Sequence record: SRR31156797_5041
Reading direction: 5' to 3' (one strand)
DNA: 32,850 bases
In this document: positions 24,941-31,982 of the stretch, in pieces
Numbering within the stretch: the first letter of the stretch is position 1
How the letters are laid out: each line of letters begins with the position of its first letter
Position numbers and translations under genes: made by a program
The notes under the pieces: model-generated
Seen by the model: only the letters and a program-made list of their open reading frames with translations
Told to the model about the DNA's origin: nothing
The model's database searches: none

Positions 24941-25492
24941 ATGAACATACTTCTCATCGATAATAACGACAGCTTCACCAACAACCTTGAGCACCTGCTG
25001 GCCCGCGAAATTCTCGGGGCACGGATTGCGGTGCTTCCCTATGCAGACGTTCTGGGGTGCGGAGGCTCTTTTGATTTCAGTGGCTATCAGCTGATCATTC
25101 TTTCCCCCGGTCCGGGGTGCCCTGCTGATTATCCGGGCTATGAGCGAGTGATTGAGTCCGGCCTGCCCGTGTTGGGCGTCTGTCTCGGCATGCAGATCAT
25201 TAATGAATATTTTGGCGGGCGCACCGCAAGGCTGGACGGCTGTTTTCATGGACGTACCGAGCGGATCAATTTTGCCGGACAGAATCTGGCCGTGGCCCGC
25301 TACCATTCCCTTTATTGTACGCAGTTGGGACAGGGGCTTAAGCTACTCAGTGAAAATAGCGCGCATATTCCCATGGCCGTGGCCCATGAAAGTCTTCCTC
25401 TGCTGGGCTATCAATTTCACCCGGAATCATTTTTAACCGAGCAACCCGGAGTTTTCATTGAATTCGCCCTCCATCATTTCGGACTCCTGTAG
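24941..25492 (+). CDS. pabA: Aminodeoxychorismate synthase glutamine amidotransferase subunit
   Basis: LLIDNNDSFT, ILSPGPG.P, GVCLG.Q, RYHS and QFHPES. Confidence 0.85.
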   Translation: MNILLIDNNDSFTNNLEHLLAREILGARIAVLPYADVLGCGGSFDFSGYQLIILSPGPGCPADYPGYERVIESGLPVLGVCLGMQIINEYFGGRTARLDGCFHGRTERINFAGQNLAVARYHSLYCTQLGQGLKLLSENSAHIPMAVAHESLPLLGYQFHPESFLTEQPGVFIEFALHHFGLL

Positions 25493-26747
25493 TTTTGAGC
25501 GCTTCCGGGAAATTGCCTACCATTTTGTGCGTGGGCAGGAAGCGGACGTGCTGCTCGGTGATCCTGAGTTTCCTGATTCGTGTGTGAGTTATTTGGGCAT
25601 TGAGCCACAAGAGGAACTCGTTTTGCAATCCGGTGTATCCGGACCAGACGTCAGCGCAAAAATGAAAGAGTTCTGCTTTACCGGGGATGGACCTGTTCTC
25701 GGCTATCTTTCTTATGAACTCGGGCATGAATTGCGCGGGGTGGAAAGCAATAAAGCTGCGGAGTTTCCGTTGCTGCATCTAAAAAAGTATCGCGCGGTGC
25801 TGGCTCATGACAGTGGGGATTCGTCCCTGAAGTTGATTTGTGTCGACGAAACTTATCGGTCAGCGATAGTTGATTCAATTGCATATCTCGAGAGTGTGCC
25901 GGATGTCGCACTGCCGTCTTTTGGTGAGAGTGAGCTCCGTATGTCTCTGGATAAACAGGGATATGAAGATGGTGTTGCTCGTACGCTTGAGTACATCCGT
26001 GATGGTTTGACTTACCAGCTTAACCTTACCACCCGTTTGACCATGTCGGGTGGGGATCTTGATCCTGTGCTCTGGTTTTTCGCACTCCATAAACGTTATC
26101 CTGCTCCTTATTATGCACTCTTTGGCAGTGGTGGAAAGGTGGTTGTTTCCACCTCTCCGGAACTTTTTTTACGGGTGGAGCAGGGGCGTGTGCTTTCCGA
26201 ACCGATTAAGGGAACACTTCGTTTTGAGGAGTATTCCGAAGAGTTGGTCAGGTCATTGCAGAATTCAATGAAAGAGGATTCTGAGCTTTCTATGATTGTG
26301 GACTTGGTTCGCAACGATATCTCTGCTGACTGCCATTATGAATCGGTGGTGGTAGAGGATCATAAATCAGTATTTGCGGTGGACAATCTTTTGCAAATGT
26401 TCAGCCGGGTGCGCGGGGATCTTGCTGAAGGGCGTGATTGCATTGATTTACTATTGAATTCTTTTCCCGGCGGCTCCATAACCGGATGTCCAAAGAAAAG
26501 TTCCATGGAGCTTATCGATAGGCTTGAACCGCATGTGCGTGGACCGTATTGCGGCAGTATAGTGCTTATCAATGGGCCGCAGGATATGGTTGCTTCCATA
26601 CCCATTAGGACTGCTGTTTATGACCAGAGTACAAAAGAACTGGATTACTGGGCCGGAAGCGGCATTGTTATTGATTCCGACCCTGAAGCGGAGTACAGGG
26701 AAACCATTGCCAAAGCCGGTAAAATCTTAGCTCCGGAGTCCGTATGA
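25458..26747 (+). CDS. pabB: Aminodeoxychorismate synthase component I (chorismate-binding)
   Basis: GYLSYE, YQLNL, SPELFL, PIKGT, MIVDLVRND, FPGGSITGCPK and GSGIV.DSDP..EY.E. Lies between pabA and a class IV aminotransferase. Confidence 0.85.
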   Translation: MNSPSIISDSCSFERFREIAYHFVRGQEADVLLGDPEFPDSCVSYLGIEPQEELVLQSGVSGPDVSAKMKEFCFTGDGPVLGYLSYELGHELRGVESNKAAEFPLLHLKKYRAVLAHDSGDSSLKLICVDETYRSAIVDSIAYLESVPDVALPSFGESELRMSLDKQGYEDGVARTLEYIRDGLTYQLNLTTRLTMSGGDLDPVLWFFALHKRYPAPYYALFGSGGKVVVSTSPELFLRVEQGRVLSEPIKGTLRFEEYSEELVRSLQNSMKEDSELSMIVDLVRNDISADCHYESVVVEDHKSVFAVDNLLQMFSRVRGDLAEGRDCIDLLLNSFPGGSITGCPKKSSMELIDRLEPHVRGPYCGSIVLINGPQDMVASIPIRTAVYDQSTKELDYWAGSGIVIDSDPEAEYRETIAKAGKILAPESV

Positions 26748-27514
26748 TATATTTCAAAAATGGTGAATTGTTCGAAGATGAGGTCCGTCTCGATCTTGCC
26801 CAGCCTGCATTCAGGACCGGGTATGGATTTTTTGAGACACTCTGCTGGAATGGCAAAAATATTTGTCATCTGGATCTGCATTTGGAACGGGCGCGCAAAA
26901 GCCTTGCTGAATTCGGAATTGTTGAAGATCCACTTGATTATGAAGCTGTCATCCGGGGAGTGATCAACGCGAATGGTCTTGAAAATGAATTTGCCCGGGT
27001 AAATATTTTTTTCCCGGTAGAACAGGGTAAGACTCTCCCCCTCATTTGTGCGGCGCCTTTTGAGTATATTCCACGGCGCACTTGGACCCTCAAACCTAAT
27101 CCACATATTTTTCTTACCCCGCTTATGGCCCATAAATCTACAAATCGTATGGATTATCTTAACGCATGGAAAGCTGCACAGGCAGACGGTTTTGATGATG
27201 CGCTTTTACAAGATTTTGAGGGCAATGTGCTCGAGTCTTCCTTTGCTTCTCTTTTATTTAGAGTTGGTGATACTCTTATTGAACCGCAGACTGAATTTAA
27301 ACTTCCCGGTACAGCCCAGAATATCGCGGCTGAGCGTCTTGAAATTGATGCCGCACTGATTCATTTATCCCAGATTGAGCAGTTTGATTATGTTTATGCC
27401 CTAAATTCATTGGGCGGCATGATTCCCGTTAGCGCCATTGGTGATGTGGAATTTGAGCTTGATTTTGCCTTAGCTGATGAAATAAGCGCTGGAATTTTAG
27501 AATTTAAATTATAA
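26744..27514 (+). CDS. pabC: Class IV aminotransferase-fold protein, probable 4-amino-4-deoxychorismate lyase
   Basis: GYGFFET, HLER, HKST (PLP Lys), LPGT and NS motifs. ATGA overlap with pabB. Confidence 0.75.
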   Translation: MIYFKNGELFEDEVRLDLAQPAFRTGYGFFETLCWNGKNICHLDLHLERARKSLAEFGIVEDPLDYEAVIRGVINANGLENEFARVNIFFPVEQGKTLPLICAAPFEYIPRRTWTLKPNPHIFLTPLMAHKSTNRMDYLNAWKAAQADGFDDALLQDFEGNVLESSFASLLFRVGDTLIEPQTEFKLPGTAQNIAAERLEIDAALIHLSQIEQFDYVYALNSLGGMIPVSAIGDVEFELDFALADEISAGILEFKL

Positions 27515-27612: not shown

Positions 27613-28317
27613 ATGGTGGGATTCGAAATGGTTGCGAGTAATACTAAATTTACAGTGCTTTCGTGCGGTTCTCTTGATAATCTTGGGCTTCAACAAGGCG
27701 AGAGTGTTAATATTGAATTGTTTCCAACTCAGGAGCGTCTTTGGGGAGAGGTTGTAGGTTTTAAGTCCGGTGTATTCCTTTCTGTATGGCTTCCAGCTTT
27801 AAGAGAAAAAGAATATCAGCGGATTTTGGCCGATGATCCTGATGTTACTGTTCGAGCGAAATGCAAAGGCTGCTTTATATGCGGTTTCCGTTCAACGGTG
27901 ACCAGAATTATGAAATATCCTTACCCTCTTCTATATCTGAGCTATCCTGAGTCTTTTGAGAAGGTCAGCTTACGCAAGAACGAGCGTGTAGAGTGTTTTC
28001 AGCCGGTAGGCATTCTTTTTCGAGGAACAGAGTTGCAAGGGGTCTTTAAAGATATTTCAAAATGTGGAGGGAGAATATCATTCACCCTTCCTGATGGTAA
28101 CATCTTTTTCAATATGGGGCAGGACCTGAAGGCTGATTTTTGTTTCAATATGAATGGGGATGGTCCTGAGATCAGTGGAGTCGGAGTTATTCGTAATATG
28201 GTCAGTGGGTCGACCAATGTTTCCATCGGGCTCAAGTTTATGAAGTTAAATAATGGTGCAGAGGCGTTGTTAGATCAAGTGATCAAATCATTTAGCCTGC
28301 ATGCCGGATCTGTTTAA
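27613..28317 (+). CDS. PilZ-domain (YcgR/flagellar-brake-like) c-di-GMP-binding protein
   Basis: RKNER (RxxxR) and DISKCG (DxSxxG), an N-terminal PilZN-like region, and IGLKF. The start could be 27628. Confidence 0.8.
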   Translation: MVGFEMVASNTKFTVLSCGSLDNLGLQQGESVNIELFPTQERLWGEVVGFKSGVFLSVWLPALREKEYQRILADDPDVTVRAKCKGCFICGFRSTVTRIMKYPYPLLYLSYPESFEKVSLRKNERVECFQPVGILFRGTELQGVFKDISKCGGRISFTLPDGNIFFNMGQDLKADFCFNMNGDGPEISGVGVIRNMVSGSTNVSIGLKFMKLNNGAEALLDQVIKSFSLHAGSV

Positions 28318-28384: not shown

Positions 28385-29650
28385 TTATCGAACGGTAGCT
28401 ATACGCGAGCGCACAGGAATATTTTTCGAATTGAGGCCGGGAGTTTGTCCATGCAGGTCGAAGTCGAGGTTCACTTCGGGCCTGAAGATGAGTACGTGCG
28501 TTGAGCCTCCGAAATGAAACATACCTAGCTGATCTCCTTTATTTACATGTTGTCCCTCATAAACTGTGATTTCGTTTGAAGAAACCTCTGCCATGCCGAC
28601 AAACATGACTGCCATTAAGCCGATGTCCGGATTGTCAGCTTCAATAAAGATCAAGGCCCGGGCTGCAACTTGAGTGATGTAGCCCTGAGATCCGTTGGGG
28701 CTGGCCGGATCAAATCCAACTGTTGGGGATTGGGCGTAATAGGACCCGTCGATTAATTTTGTTTTTACAATCCTGCCGCTGACCGGGCTGTGCCAACGAT
28801 GGTAGCTGAGTGCGCTTAAAAAAGCTTGATAGATGGTTCCGCCTTTGAATTTTGCTGCCAGTGGGTCAGCATCAAGCATGTGGTAGAGCGAATACGGTTG
28901 ACCTTTTATCCAGAATTTGTCTCGCATTTTTATGTTCTTGGCCAGATTGAACGGTGCTGATTCACAGGCGTTTGCGATGACGGAATCATTGTTGGGTGCG
29001 GCAACCGGGCGGCGCCCTTTGCGGAACTGGCGGGTGAAAAAGTCGTCCCATGAGGTGAATCCGTGGTATTGCTTGGTCGGATCGCAGATGAAGTCTTTTT
29101 CAAAGTCTGGCATAGCCTTTTGAGCATCGCGACCAAACCACCCCTTTTTCGGGTCTTTGCTAAGTACGTATCTGGAATCCTGTGACCCGAGGAAGACTGC
29201 CCATTGGTTGAGTATCTTTTTCAGTTGTGCGTTGACCCGTCTGTCAAGAAAAGCACTTGTTCCGGCTGATGTTCCCATGGGCCAGTTTAAAATGGAGTTG
29301 ATGGGAAAACCCACCATAGCGGTCTTGTTGAATTCAGGTGCCTGTTGTGAAATTTTACTCAGTTTTCTCAACATCTGTTTATAGTCATGGATTTGTGGAT
29401 TACCAGCCGGATCTTTTTTGAACTTCGGTTTGTCGGGAATCATCTCGAACATTTGCGTGAAAAGCATAAGCAGTTCTGGATCGCTTTCAATAAGTTCTTT
29501 GAATTCCTGCACGACGGGAATCAGCTGCGGGGTATCCTTTAAAACAGCAGTTTGAGACGCTCCGTTTGCTGAGACTGAAATACCAAGGCATAAAAGCAGA
29601 CCGCAAAAAAAAACTATAAGATTTTTAGTCCAATACCGATTACATGTCAT
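28385..29650 (-). CDS. Phosphatidylserine decarboxylase-family pyruvoyl enzyme (PsiD/PSDC type) with N-terminal signal peptide
   Basis: FFTR, YHRWHSPV.G, VGMAEVSS, KGDQLGMFHFGGST (self-cleavage) and VGFPIN..L.WPM.T. ATG 29650 follows GGAGG. Confidence 0.82.
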   Translation of the reverse strand: MTCNRYWTKNLIVFFCGLLLCLGISVSANGASQTAVLKDTPQLIPVVQEFKELIESDPELLMLFTQMFEMIPDKPKFKKDPAGNPQIHDYKQMLRKLSKISQQAPEFNKTAMVGFPINSILNWPMGTSAGTSAFLDRRVNAQLKKILNQWAVFLGSQDSRYVLSKDPKKGWFGRDAQKAMPDFEKDFICDPTKQYHGFTSWDDFFTRQFRKGRRPVAAPNNDSVIANACESAPFNLAKNIKMRDKFWIKGQPYSLYHMLDADPLAAKFKGGTIYQAFLSALSYHRWHSPVSGRIVKTKLIDGSYYAQSPTVGFDPASPNGSQGYITQVAARALIFIEADNPDIGLMAVMFVGMAEVSSNEITVYEGQHVNKGDQLGMFHFGGSTHVLIFRPEVNLDFDLHGQTPGLNSKNIPVRSRIATVR

Positions 29651-29750
29651 TTTCAAACCTCCGGCTTGAGTTATTGAAGGCAAGGTTGGATGATTGAATA
29701 TCATTCCCCTTATAGCCTGCTGGAGATAATGTTGCCAAGCATGATAAGTA

Positions 29751-29790
29751 AAAAGGGCTGCCCTGAGTTGGATAACTCAGAGCAGCCCTT
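29751..29790 (-). terminator. Intrinsic terminator of the sulfur carrier-TtuA-GT2 operon
   Basis: AAGGGCTGC.CTGAGTT/AACTCAG.GCAGCCCTT stem with a U-tract on the minus strand. Confidence 0.8.
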
Positions 29791-29825: not shown

Positions 29826-30845
29826 TTACGAAACCAGCAGGTAATCCTGCCCCATCACATAGTCGCGCGCATCCAAGAATTCGGCTACCTCATCCCGTGC
29901 CCCCCAGCTGGCCACGTAGGAGAGTAGGAAGGTGTTTCCTGCTGCGGGTATTTCCTCGCGGTGGAGAACCTTTTTGCCGTGGATGAGCATGCCTACCTTG
30001 CGCGGGTCCACGTCGACGTAGAAGGCCGTTTCCACGCCTAGATTTTCCAGCATTTGGTAACGTTTGCGGGAGGTCCTGCCAGAGCCGATAATCCCAACTT
30101 TGGGGTTGGGGCCGAGTCTTTTTTGCAACCAGTTAAACAGATATTCGCTCTTGATGCGGTAGAAGGCTTCAATAGTATATTTGGGGTGGTTGCGGGATAA
30201 GCGGTCAGGTGGATCATTCCAGATGAGCAGTTCTTCATCCACTTTGCGCATTTTTACCCCGGCTTCCAGCCAGCGCAGAACTAGTTCGTAATCTTCGGGA
30301 AAATCACCGTCACGGAACGGGCCGTGTTTTTCAACAAGTTCCCTGCGCATCATGATGGACGGGTTGGCGAAAGGAAATTCCACAAAACGGTTCAGAGAAA
30401 TTTCATCCGCACCAACCAAGGTGTTGATCCAGTCCACGTAATGGGCGTAGCCGCCGTTCTTATCGCGGTCACCGCCGAAACCTACTCGGCAGGCAGTCAG
30501 TCCGGTTTCAGGGTCGCGGTCCAGCAGGTTGGCTTGTTTTGCAATCCGTTCGGGCAGGGCAAGGTCATCAGCGTCCATGCGCGCAATGTAGTTCCCGGAT
30601 GCTGCCTTAATAGCTGCATTGGCCGCACCGACCACTCCCTGATGTGCAAGGAAGATCGGTTTTAAGCGTGAATCACGGGCGGCGTATCTTTTGAGAATTT
30701 CAGCAGTATTGTCATCGGAACCATCATCCACGGCCACCAGTTCGAGCTTTTCGAAGGTTTGGCCGAGGATGCTTTCAATTGCTGCGCCCACAGTGGACCC
30801 ACAATTGTAACAGGGCATGGTTACCGAGACTTTGGGGTTGCTCAT
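29826..30845 (-). CDS. Family 2 glycosyltransferase, B3GNTL1/QTGAL-like
   Basis: GT-A fold motifs VS..MPCYN, VDDGS.D, RMDADD and PEDY, plus an additional C-terminal Rossmann-like domain (IIGSG, YVDVDPRK). Confidence 0.85.
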   Translation of the reverse strand: MSNPKVSVTMPCYNCGSTVGAAIESILGQTFEKLELVAVDDGSDDNTAEILKRYAARDSRLKPIFLAHQGVVGAANAAIKAASGNYIARMDADDLALPERIAKQANLLDRDPETGLTACRVGFGGDRDKNGGYAHYVDWINTLVGADEISLNRFVEFPFANPSIMMRRELVEKHGPFRDGDFPEDYELVLRWLEAGVKMRKVDEELLIWNDPPDRLSRNHPKYTIEAFYRIKSEYLFNWLQKRLGPNPKVGIIGSGRTSRKRYQMLENLGVETAFYVDVDPRKVGMLIHGKKVLHREEIPAAGNTFLLSYVASWGARDEVAEFLDARDYVMGQDYLLVS

Positions 30846-30847
30846 GC

Positions 30848-31780
30848 CTATTCTGCTCCGATGGATTCCTGTTCGATAGATTCCTGCAACTGGCGTTTAA
30901 GCCTGCAAATACTGCATACTCCTGCTGAAGTAGGGTATCCGCATTCTGTACAGGGATTGATTTCGTAATTTTTTGCTTCTTTTTCAATGGCTGAGAAAGC
31001 AGGCTGCCCGCGATCAAGAAATCCTTTGTAGAATGCACGCTTGGTACCGGGGCTGCGCAGTTCCATATCCCGCCAGAGCTTTTTATGCCCGGTGAAGCTG
31101 GCTCCAGAACTGTAGGGGCAGGGCAGGTGATGATAGGGAATGTCTGCCAGAAAGGAGAATATGGCACTTTCATATTCTGTTACCCGAAAAAGGGGCTTTA
31201 CCTTCTTGGCAAAACCATTCTCTGCAGGCAGTACCGGGCCCTGGTCGGAAAGGTAGCCCTGATCCCAGCGCAAAGTGTTGGCGAAGAGGCGGGCTACTTC
31301 ATCATCAAGGTTATGTCCGGTTGCGAGGGCGGTGTAGCCTTCTTCAATGGCAACTTTGTTGAAATAGTGGCGTTTGAATTTTCCACAGATGGCGCAGATA
31401 GGACGGCGGATGTGTTTTTTGATTAGCGGCATGGGCACGCCTTCTTTTTCCAGCTCCACTATCCGAAGTGGGTAGCCCTTGTCTTTGCAGAAATCTTCTA
31501 CCACGGCACGAGCCTTAATGGATGATTCAAAAATACCCAGATCAATGTGCAGTCCGGTTACATCGTAGCCCAGTTCAGCCAGTGCATACATGAGTCCGAG
31601 GGAATCTTTGCCGCCGGAAAGTGCGACCAGTACTTTGTCATCGCGTTCAAGTAGTTTGCGGTTTTTGATACCCTGCGCGACTTGCTTCATGAAAAAAGTA
31701 TTAAAATGTTCCTTACAGAACGCGGCATTATGACTGGGCAGCGCGACAACAGCCTTTGCTTTGCATACCTTACATTTCAT
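30848..31780 (-). CDS. ttuA: TtuA/Ctu1-type tRNA 2-thiolation enzyme (PP-loop, Fe-S)
   Basis: N-terminal CxxC...CxxH Zn finger, SGGKDS, CAIC, TGHNLDD, KPL, CPY and a C-terminal CxxC...CxxC Zn finger. Confidence 0.8.
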   Translation of the reverse strand: MKCKVCKAKAVVALPSHNAAFCKEHFNTFFMKQVAQGIKNRKLLERDDKVLVALSGGKDSLGLMYALAELGYDVTGLHIDLGIFESSIKARAVVEDFCKDKGYPLRIVELEKEGVPMPLIKKHIRRPICAICGKFKRHYFNKVAIEEGYTALATGHNLDDEVARLFANTLRWDQGYLSDQGPVLPAENGFAKKVKPLFRVTEYESAIFSFLADIPYHHLPCPYSSGASFTGHKKLWRDMELRSPGTKRAFYKGFLDRGQPAFSAIEKEAKNYEINPCTECGYPTSAGVCSICRLKRQLQESIEQESIGAE

Positions 31781-31784
31781 ATCA

Positions 31785-31982
31785 TTATCCTACGGAAATT
31801 ACTTTTCTGAGTTCAATTTCATCACCCTGCCTGATCGGTTCATCCTGAGTGAGCAGTTCTCCGTCGCGGATGACCAGAGTATCAGTATGGTGCAGGCCCT
31901 GCTTGTTGAGCAATTGCAGGACGGTATTTAATTTTGTGTATTCTACTGTCTGGCCTTCGGGCTCGATTTTGATAATTACCAT
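31785..31982 (-). CDS. ThiS/MoaD/TtuB-like ubiquitin-fold sulfur carrier (65 aa)
   Basis: ATG 31982 after AAGGAG, TV.QLL...GL.....LVIRDGELL..D..I..GDEIE pattern, and the C-terminus ISVG. Confidence 0.78.
   Translation of the reverse strand: MVIIKIEPEGQTVEYTKLNTVLQLLNKQGLHHTDTLVIRDGELLTQDEPIRQGDEIELRKVISVG

Follow-up and report, generated by a model that had tools for sequence, protein, structure and literature searches.

A soluble two-domain glycosyltransferase encoded beside a TtuA-type thiolase is a candidate tRNA-modifying enzyme of bacteria

Results

A sulfur carrier, a TtuA-type thiolase and a glycosyltransferase form a predicted operon

We analysed a 32,850-nucleotide (nt) stretch of DNA, SRR31156797_5041 (referred to below as the window; coordinates are positions in it), focusing on three consecutive genes that encode a ubiquitin-like sulfur carrier, a TtuA-type tRNA thiolase and a family 2 glycosyltransferase (GT2). 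An earlier reading of the same DNA, made from its letters alone (the original prediction), had proposed that the GT2 resembles human B3GNTL1, also called QTGAL, over its full length, and that it glycosylates queuosine (Q) at position 34 (Q34) or another base of bacterial tRNA. The top protein matches are 84–88% identical to Maridesulfovibrio proteins, and the host is therefore probably a Maridesulfovibrio-like sulfate reducer. The features of the locus are as follows.

31785..31982, minus strand: gene 1 of the predicted operon, encoding a ThiS/TtuB-like ubiquitin-fold sulfur carrier of 65 amino acids (aa); open reading frame (ORF), AAGGAG site, Pfam ThiS match
30848..31780, minus strand: gene 2, encoding a TtuA-type PP-loop/[4Fe-4S] tRNA 2-thiolase of 310 aa; Pfam PP-loop and TtuA_LIM_N matches
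29826..30845, minus strand: gene 3, encoding a two-domain, predicted soluble GT2 glycosyltransferase of 339 aa plus stop; Pfam PF00535 match, AlphaFold2 (AF2) model
30141..30845, minus strand: GT-A catalytic domain of the GT2, residues 1 to ~235, with D-A-D-D at residues 91–94; Pfam, family alignment, AF2 model, Foldseek
29829..30101, minus strand: basic Rossmann-like C-terminal domain of the GT2, residues 249–339, with a G-x-G-R-x-x-R-x-R loop; Pfam, family profile, model of the domain
29753..29790, minus strand: intrinsic-terminator-like hairpin at the end of the predicted operon; 17-pair stem with 9 GC pairs, 4-nt loop, followed by TTTT

The gaps between the genes are only 4 nt (carrier to ttuA) and 2 nt (ttuA to GT2), a Shine-Dalgarno-like AAGGAG lies upstream of the carrier ATG, and the hairpin begins 35 nt past the GT2 stop codon. 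A scan for hairpins of this kind found six sites, compared with 3.5 ± 2.2 in shuffled sequences, and the stem at 29790–29753 was by far the longest. ORF coordinates and hairpin thus agree with the arrangement described in the original prediction, three co-oriented genes closed by one terminator, and Pfam matches for all three proteins bear out the identities it assigned. We conclude that the carrier, ttuA and GT2 genes are one predicted transcription unit.

The GT2 combines a GT-A domain with a basic Rossmann-like domain

The GT2 matches Pfam Glycos_transf_2 (PF00535) over residues 7–174 (E 1.6e-33). In its AF2 model, with a mean predicted local distance difference test (pLDDT) score of 96.2 and a predicted template modelling (pTM) score of 0.92, a GT-A domain extends to near residue 235, a long helix follows, and residues 249–339 form a small alpha/beta domain. 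Foldseek searches with this model returned SpsA (1qg8), WrtF (9omh), heparosan synthase (8vh7) and chondroitin polymerase (2z86) at E 1e-14 to 1e-16. Sequence matches in the PDB end at about residue 100–180, and no NCBIfam model reached its cut-off among the 25 families listed, EpsE scoring 100.8 bits against a cut-off of 450 and TuaG 88 bits against 400.

The C-terminal domain gave a weak Pfam CoA_binding match (residues 249–326, 23.4 bits). Modelled alone, it reached a pLDDT of 93.8, and its nearest structures by Foldseek, all weak matches, were the Rex family (1xcb) and 3nkl (E 2e-3 to 1e-2, template modelling scores 0.56–0.65). A profile built from the family also matched the Rex NAD(H) domain (E 2.4e-4). 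The domain is strongly basic: among 40 family members, the median isoelectric point of the last 100 residues is 9.5, compared with 5.8 for the remainder of the protein, and Lys or Arg makes up at least 80% of the residues in 13 alignment columns. A 19-residue Kyte-Doolittle mean of 1.6 was reached by only one of the 40 members, and then marginally, indicating that the family is predicted to be soluble, with no membrane segment.

In an alignment of 40 sequences including the window GT2 (alignment A1), the 39 other members are 34–76% identical to it and mean column identity is 48%. The DxD-type motif of the GT2 is the D-A-D-D at residues 91–94, of which D93 and D94 are invariant. Further family-invariant residues (N141, P158, E184, D185, R191 and W209) cluster in the half of the GT-A domain that lies on the acceptor side. 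This pattern is unusual for polysaccharide GT2 enzymes, and it fits a conserved acceptor. The segments that the original prediction had quoted from the window GT2 are all present in the 339-aa translation and coincide with the most conserved non-generic positions of alignment A1. Its statement that the protein extends beyond the generic GT-A core likewise stands: the regions concerned are conserved and family-specific, they include the extra C-terminal domain, and the PDB matches stop short of them.

The GT2 belongs to a large bacterial family

A search of 1.84 billion cluster representatives returned 1516 relatives of the GT2 at E <= 1e-30. Among the best 150, 139 are no longer than 383 aa, most of them matched end to end at 35–56% identity; the remaining 11 are long multi-GT2 proteins. 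In a collection of genomes, at least 587 of 599 pattern-matched stretches encode a GT2 relative. The best 80 loci of this genome-collection search, grouped by their record titles (the 80-locus set), come from Verrucomicrobiota (32), Desulfovibrionaceae (18, plus 1 from Desulfohalobiaceae), Bacteroidota (8), Acidobacteriota (5), Rokubacteria/Methylomirabilota (3), Kiritimatiellota (3), Balneolaceae (2), Proteobacteria (2), Ignavibacteria (1) and Thermodesulfobacteriota (1), with 4 unplaced. By sequence, then, the window GT2 belongs to a large family of uncharacterised bacterial proteins that is conserved full-length across many phyla. Source annotations call its members "glycosyltransferase involved in cell wall biosynthesis", an automatic name. 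Among the matched proteins of at least 360 aa, we saw no fused form in the matches listed, which is weak evidence.

We also looked for eukaryotic relatives. The best 120 of 1962 matches in a whole-protein search with the GT2 were all from Desulfovibrionaceae. No protein named as eukaryotic was found among ten longer proteins taken from the best 150 representatives, among the 7 matches of a C-terminal 205-aa piece to proteins of at least 360 aa, or among the best 120 of 258 matches to a 68-sequence profile of that piece. The protein Atlas clusters are bacterial, except for one that is 89% Bacteria and two with no recorded taxa. Neither a sequence search nor a Foldseek fold search of the PDB returned a QTGAL/B3GNTL1 chain.

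The carrier and thiolase resemble the TtuB and TtuA proteins

The thiolase scores 48 bits on Pfam PP-loop and 46 bits on TtuA_LIM_N. It matches Thermus thermophilus TtuA (5b4e) with 238 bits over residues 1–295 and the NcsA-type U34 thiolase structure 6scy much lower, with 99 bits. Besides the PP-loop, the protein carries three cluster cysteines and two Zn fingers, and it resembles a characterised TtuA along its full length; its score on the NCBIfam TtuA model, 253.4 bits, is under the cut-off of 450. The carrier matches Pfam ThiS with 24.0 bits (cut-off 22.5) and SAMP2 with 21.1 bits, under the cut-off, and ends in S-V-G. Carrier homologues adjoin ttuA in 7 loci of the 80-locus set, all seven from Desulfovibrionaceae, and end in SVG, SAG (three times), SSG, SLG and SRG (loci L001, L002, L008, L010, L017, L019 and L053). 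All eight carriers therefore have an S-x-G tail, in which only the last Gly of the usual Gly-Gly is retained. By homology, carrier and thiolase would place sulfur onto a tRNA uridine, and the closest solved relative points to U54 as the probable position.

Beyond the window, a TtuA-type thiolase is encoded in 96 of 101 genomes of the largely mesophilic Desulfovibrionaceae (G001, G003, G006–G104). The part of a 2026 review that deals with the TtuA product, m5s2U54, calls it typical of thermophiles.

Linkage of the GT2 gene to ttuA is confined to Desulfovibrionaceae

We next measured how often the GT2 gene lies close to ttuA. In the 80-locus set, a TtuA gene lies within 6 kb of the GT2 gene at nine loci, all from Desulfovibrionaceae, and a carrier gene at seven. 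We then sampled 101 Desulfovibrionaceae genomes, calling the GT2 at 360 bits or more on the family model. The GT2 was found in 63; the match reaches the C-terminal domain in 62 of these and ends at model position 246 in one. TtuA occurs in this sample with or without the GT2. Among the 63 GT2-bearing genomes, ttuA is directly upstream on the same strand within 150 bp in 19; upstream on the same strand within 5 kb, but spaced, in 17; within 5 kb on the opposite strand in 3; distant on the same contig in 5; on a different contig in 18; and not found in 1. Overall, ttuA lies within 5 kb of the GT2 gene in 39 of the 63 genomes, upstream and on the same strand in 36. Outside this family, five GT2-bearing genomes (Opitutaceae, Fulvivirga, Cerasicoccus, Pontiellaceae and Bryobacterales) contain no TtuA orthologue: searches with the protein scored no higher than 48 bits there, and those with the family model no higher than 48.8 bits, as compared to 253 for the window TtuA on that model.

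The conserved linkage on which the original prediction had relied is thus restricted to Desulfovibrionaceae and tolerates unrelated inserts. We conclude that this gene order is an old synteny that has stayed fairly stable within a single bacterial family. Since the GT2 family is well represented in phyla with TtuA-less genomes, the two proteins are not chemically interdependent.

One gene recurring between ttuA and the GT2 gene encodes a lipoprotein-like protein of ~130 aa with a lipobox-like N-terminus (L081:2301-2690, L083:2355-2741, L084:2298-2696, L085:2489-2887 and L086:2532-2912). Both of the inserted genes that were scanned (L081 and L085) match DUF3568.

Queuosine genes occur in GT2-bearing relatives

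Animals are known to carry sugar-modified queuosine, and the enzymes responsible for it did not receive names until 2023. Passages in three texts bear out the premise of the original prediction that B3GNTL1 is QTGAL, and state that the enzyme makes galactosyl-queuosine on tRNA-Tyr (PMC12313893, PMC11755703, bioRxiv 10.64898/2026.03.22.713446). The texts we searched contain no description of a bacterial QTGAL homologue or of bacterial glycosylated Q, and they attribute no other sugar-bearing tRNA nucleoside to bacteria.

We found tgt and queA in all five genomes of relatives, and tgt in all ten further GT2-bearing genomes from other phyla, one copy being split by a frame break; tgt is thus present in 15 of 15 hand-picked GT2-bearing genomes. 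In the Desulfovibrionaceae sample, tgt occurs in 99 of 101 genomes, including all 63 with the GT2. As all the GT2-bearing genomes that we tested contain tgt, a lack of Q machinery no longer counts as an objection where the relatives are concerned. This outcome is consistent with the original prediction but carries little positive weight, tgt being nearly universal.

Other genomic context

To examine neighbours in the 80-locus set, we clustered all ORFs of at least 80 aa. A divergent sua5/tsaC gene, encoding threonylcarbamoyl-AMP synthase for t6A in tRNA, lies upstream of the GT2 gene at four of the eight Bacteroidota loci (L028:4978-5976, L043:4279-5235, L072:4901-5863 and L073:4228-5262). ettA lies near the GT2 gene at four Opitutaceae-type loci, in the conserved order ettA, msrA, GT2 (L025, L057, L064 and L075), and trpS near it at four Desulfovibrionaceae loci. 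These recurring translation-linked neighbours (ttuB-ttuA, trpS, sua5/tsaC and ettA) fit a tRNA-related role and can be read as at most a hint of one. msrA is upstream of the GT2 gene at 13 of the 32 Verrucomicrobiota loci, and a weak Hsp33-like ORF is downstream at seven. Polysaccharide-cluster genes were found neither near the GT2 gene in the window nor, for the 80 loci, among those recurring neighbours that were scanned; genes for flippases, polymerases, other glycosyltransferases or sugar nucleotides are likewise neither nearby in the window nor recurrent in the set.

Two candidate links were rejected. A BLAST cluster of ABC ATPases at eight loci in five lineages had the appearance of a cross-phylum GT2-EttA association; only four of these proteins, all Opitutaceae-type, are EttA, and the remainder are another ABC-F or plain ABC ATPases. 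The class-I aminoacyl-tRNA synthetase near the GT2 gene at four Desulfovibrionaceae loci is TrpRS rather than TyrRS, and hence gives no pointer to tRNA-Tyr.

In the window itself, the operon is surrounded by genes for a phosphatidylserine decarboxylase (PSD)-like protein, a PilZ protein, pabABC-like functions and a response regulator. Just past the operon terminator, positions 28385–29704 (minus strand) encode the PSD-like protein, which is 439 aa long, scores 169.8 bits on PSDC and 129.3 bits on PS_Dcarbxylase, and has a hydrophobic N-terminal stretch; it is under all NCBIfam phosphatidylserine decarboxylase cut-offs, and is linked to the GT2 at none of the 80 loci. Positions 24941–27514 (plus strand) hold a pabA/pabB/pabC-like trio (GATase, chorismate-binding and class IV aminotransferase) with overlapping ends, followed at 27613–28317 (plus strand) by a gene for a YcgR-like PilZ protein.

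Discussion

Our best single guess, offered tentatively, is that the GT2 modifies tRNA with a sugar, Q34 being the leading candidate base. With its DxD-type motif and conserved E-D pair, the protein would be a cytoplasmic, putatively metal-dependent GT-A enzyme that moves a hexose from a nucleoside diphosphate (NDP)-sugar to a conserved macromolecule inside the cell, tRNA being the most probable one. Holding the RNA may fall to the basic Rossmann-like C-terminal domain, as proposed for animal QTGAL acting on queuosine-34. Four points lead us to rank tRNA first as acceptor: the proposed kinship with QTGAL, the additional basic domain, the way in which residues are conserved, and the neighbouring genes. 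The likeness to QTGAL would be meaningful if the human segments given in the original prediction are accurate, and we treat it as a lead.

Several observations weigh against this interpretation. The collinear likeness to human B3GNTL1, including the C-terminal part, is a proposal of the original prediction rather than the result of a computed alignment. The presence of tgt discriminates nothing, as 36 of the 38 Desulfovibrionaceae genomes with no GT2 also have it. ttuA is linked to the GT2 gene at none of 61 loci from outside Desulfovibrionaceae. Even within that family, unrelated genes are inserted between the two: among 11 inspected regions of the 17 spaced cases, five hold the DUF3568 lipoprotein gene on the same strand, and three others hold a type II secretion system ATPase, a helix-turn-helix gene or a dihaem cytochrome c. 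Every translation-related neighbour reflects lineage-specific synteny, housekeeping genes often sit together, and the neighbour seen most often in Verrucomicrobiota, msrA, does not serve translation. The folds nearest to the C-terminal domain are those that bind dinucleotides or CoA, and a small nucleotide-like acceptor or effector is an equally possible ligand. Finally, the string "glycosyl" does not occur in a portion of 300,000 characters of a 2026 compendium of bacterial RNA modification, where no such bacterial nucleoside is thus recorded.

Some of these points are also what would be expected if the acceptor of the GT2 were a small conserved molecule of the cytoplasm (a nucleotide-like cofactor, for example, or a low-molecular-weight thiol or solute precursor) or a protein, perhaps one of translation or stress; we consider this possibility real if somewhat doubtful. 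The Rossmann-like domain would then bind that ligand or a dinucleotide effector, consistent with its proximity to the Rex NAD(H)-binding and CoA-binding-like domains, and the ttuA neighbourhood would be inherited housekeeping synteny, consistent with the unrelated genes that separate ttuA from the GT2 gene in several genomes. msrA and the Hsp33-like gene lend the Verrucomicrobiota loci a redox-stress flavour, and high conservation and solubility would suit any conserved intracellular acceptor. However, the glycine-rich loop lacks a third glycine and carries three conserved Arg/Lys residues, which is atypical of a plain dinucleotide site, and no partner biosynthetic genes (phosphatase, ligase or deacetylase) recur in the 80 loci. 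This explanation would also lose ground if the proposed kinship with QTGAL is real.

It is unlikely that the GT2 is an ordinary peripheral enzyme of envelope glycans, of the EpsE, WcaA or TuaG kind, that acts on a polymer or on an acceptor linked to a lipid. Its top matches by sequence in NCBIfam and the PDB (EpsE, TuaG, and the chondroitin and heparosan synthases) and the cell wall biosynthesis named in source annotations are consistent with such a role; however, these matches span only the generic nucleotide-sugar-binding part (residues ~3–120) and fall far under every curated cut-off, the source names are automatic, the flippase, polymerase, glycosyltransferase and sugar-nucleotide genes of a glycan cluster are neither close by in the window nor recurrent in the 80 loci, and conservation over the full length and across phyla is unlike that of strain-variable glycan glycosyltransferases. 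A chemical pathway shared with TtuA and the carrier, in which the GT2 would glycosylate a thiolated nucleoside (possibly as an S-glycoside) or build a thio-sugar with sulfur supplied by the carrier, is highly improbable. The tight operon, with its 2- and 4-nt gaps, and the position of ttuA immediately upstream in 19 of 63 genomes are suggestive of a shared pathway, and GT2-fold S-glycosyltransferases exist, with SunS being among the weak PDB matches. By contrast, a TtuA orthologue is missing from the five genomes of other phyla that encode the GT2, and in Desulfovibrionaceae TtuA is found in 96 of 101 genomes as compared to 63 of 101 for the GT2. Coupled chemistry is thus largely refuted by the phyletic pattern, and we reject dependence of the GT2 on TtuA on this basis.

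Returning to tRNA glycosylation by the GT2, we regard it as plausible and as a good experimental lead, rather than as a demonstrated system. Taken to the level of the family, it is conceivable, if doubtful, that these two-domain proteins correspond in bacteria to animal QTGAL, which may even have evolved from them, and hexosylate queuosine or another tRNA base in Desulfobacterota, Verrucomicrobiota, Bacteroidota, Acidobacteriota and other phyla. If so, their product would be the first nucleoside of bacterial tRNA to carry a sugar modification of this kind, and in Desulfovibrionaceae the enzyme would be co-expressed with tRNA thiolation; tRNA glycosylation would be an ancient and widespread bacterial trait, with the animal enzyme of likely bacterial origin; and tractable microbes would become available for studying the role of the sugar in decoding. 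Whatever the acceptor, the GT2 represents a large, strongly conserved family of predicted soluble glycosyltransferases with an unusual basic Rossmann-like appendage and no assigned function.

Comparison with known systems

The TtuA-TtuB system for 2-thiouridine-54 in Thermus thermophilus is the closest known parallel to the first two genes of the operon. The window TtuA shares its Zn-finger cysteines, SGGKDS PP-loop and cluster cysteines, and a gene for a ThiS-fold carrier lies directly upstream of ttuA. Unlike the Thermus system, the window carrier ends in S-x-G rather than Gly-Gly, hosts of the window type are mostly mesophiles, the operon includes a GT2 gene, and the TtuA score is under the NCBIfam cut-off.

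Generic bacterial GT2 enzymes (SpsA, WrtF, heparosan synthase and chondroitin polymerase) have in common with the window protein the GT-A fold and a DxD-type metal and nucleotide-sugar site, with a sequence match over residues ~3–120 only. They lack the acceptor-side motifs and the Rossmann-like C-terminal domain of the window family, and they act on glycan or teichoic-acid acceptors, usually from within glycan gene clusters. Rex and the CoA-binding-like domains (1xcb and 3nkl) resemble that C-terminal domain in their small Rossmann-like alpha/beta fold, the first loop of which is rich in glycine. Unlike in Rex, the domain is strongly basic, its loop reads G-x-G-R-x-x-R-x-R, and its fusion partner is a preceding GT-A domain instead of one that binds DNA.

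QTGAL is itself a GT2-family enzyme that is cytoplasmic, uses a nucleic-acid acceptor and works outside glycan pathways. The window GT2 has the class trait of QTGAL, a GT-A catalytic domain with a DxD-type motif. It differs from QTGAL in belonging to a bacterial host, one in which Q would be made de novo, as suggested by the presence of tgt and queA in its relatives.

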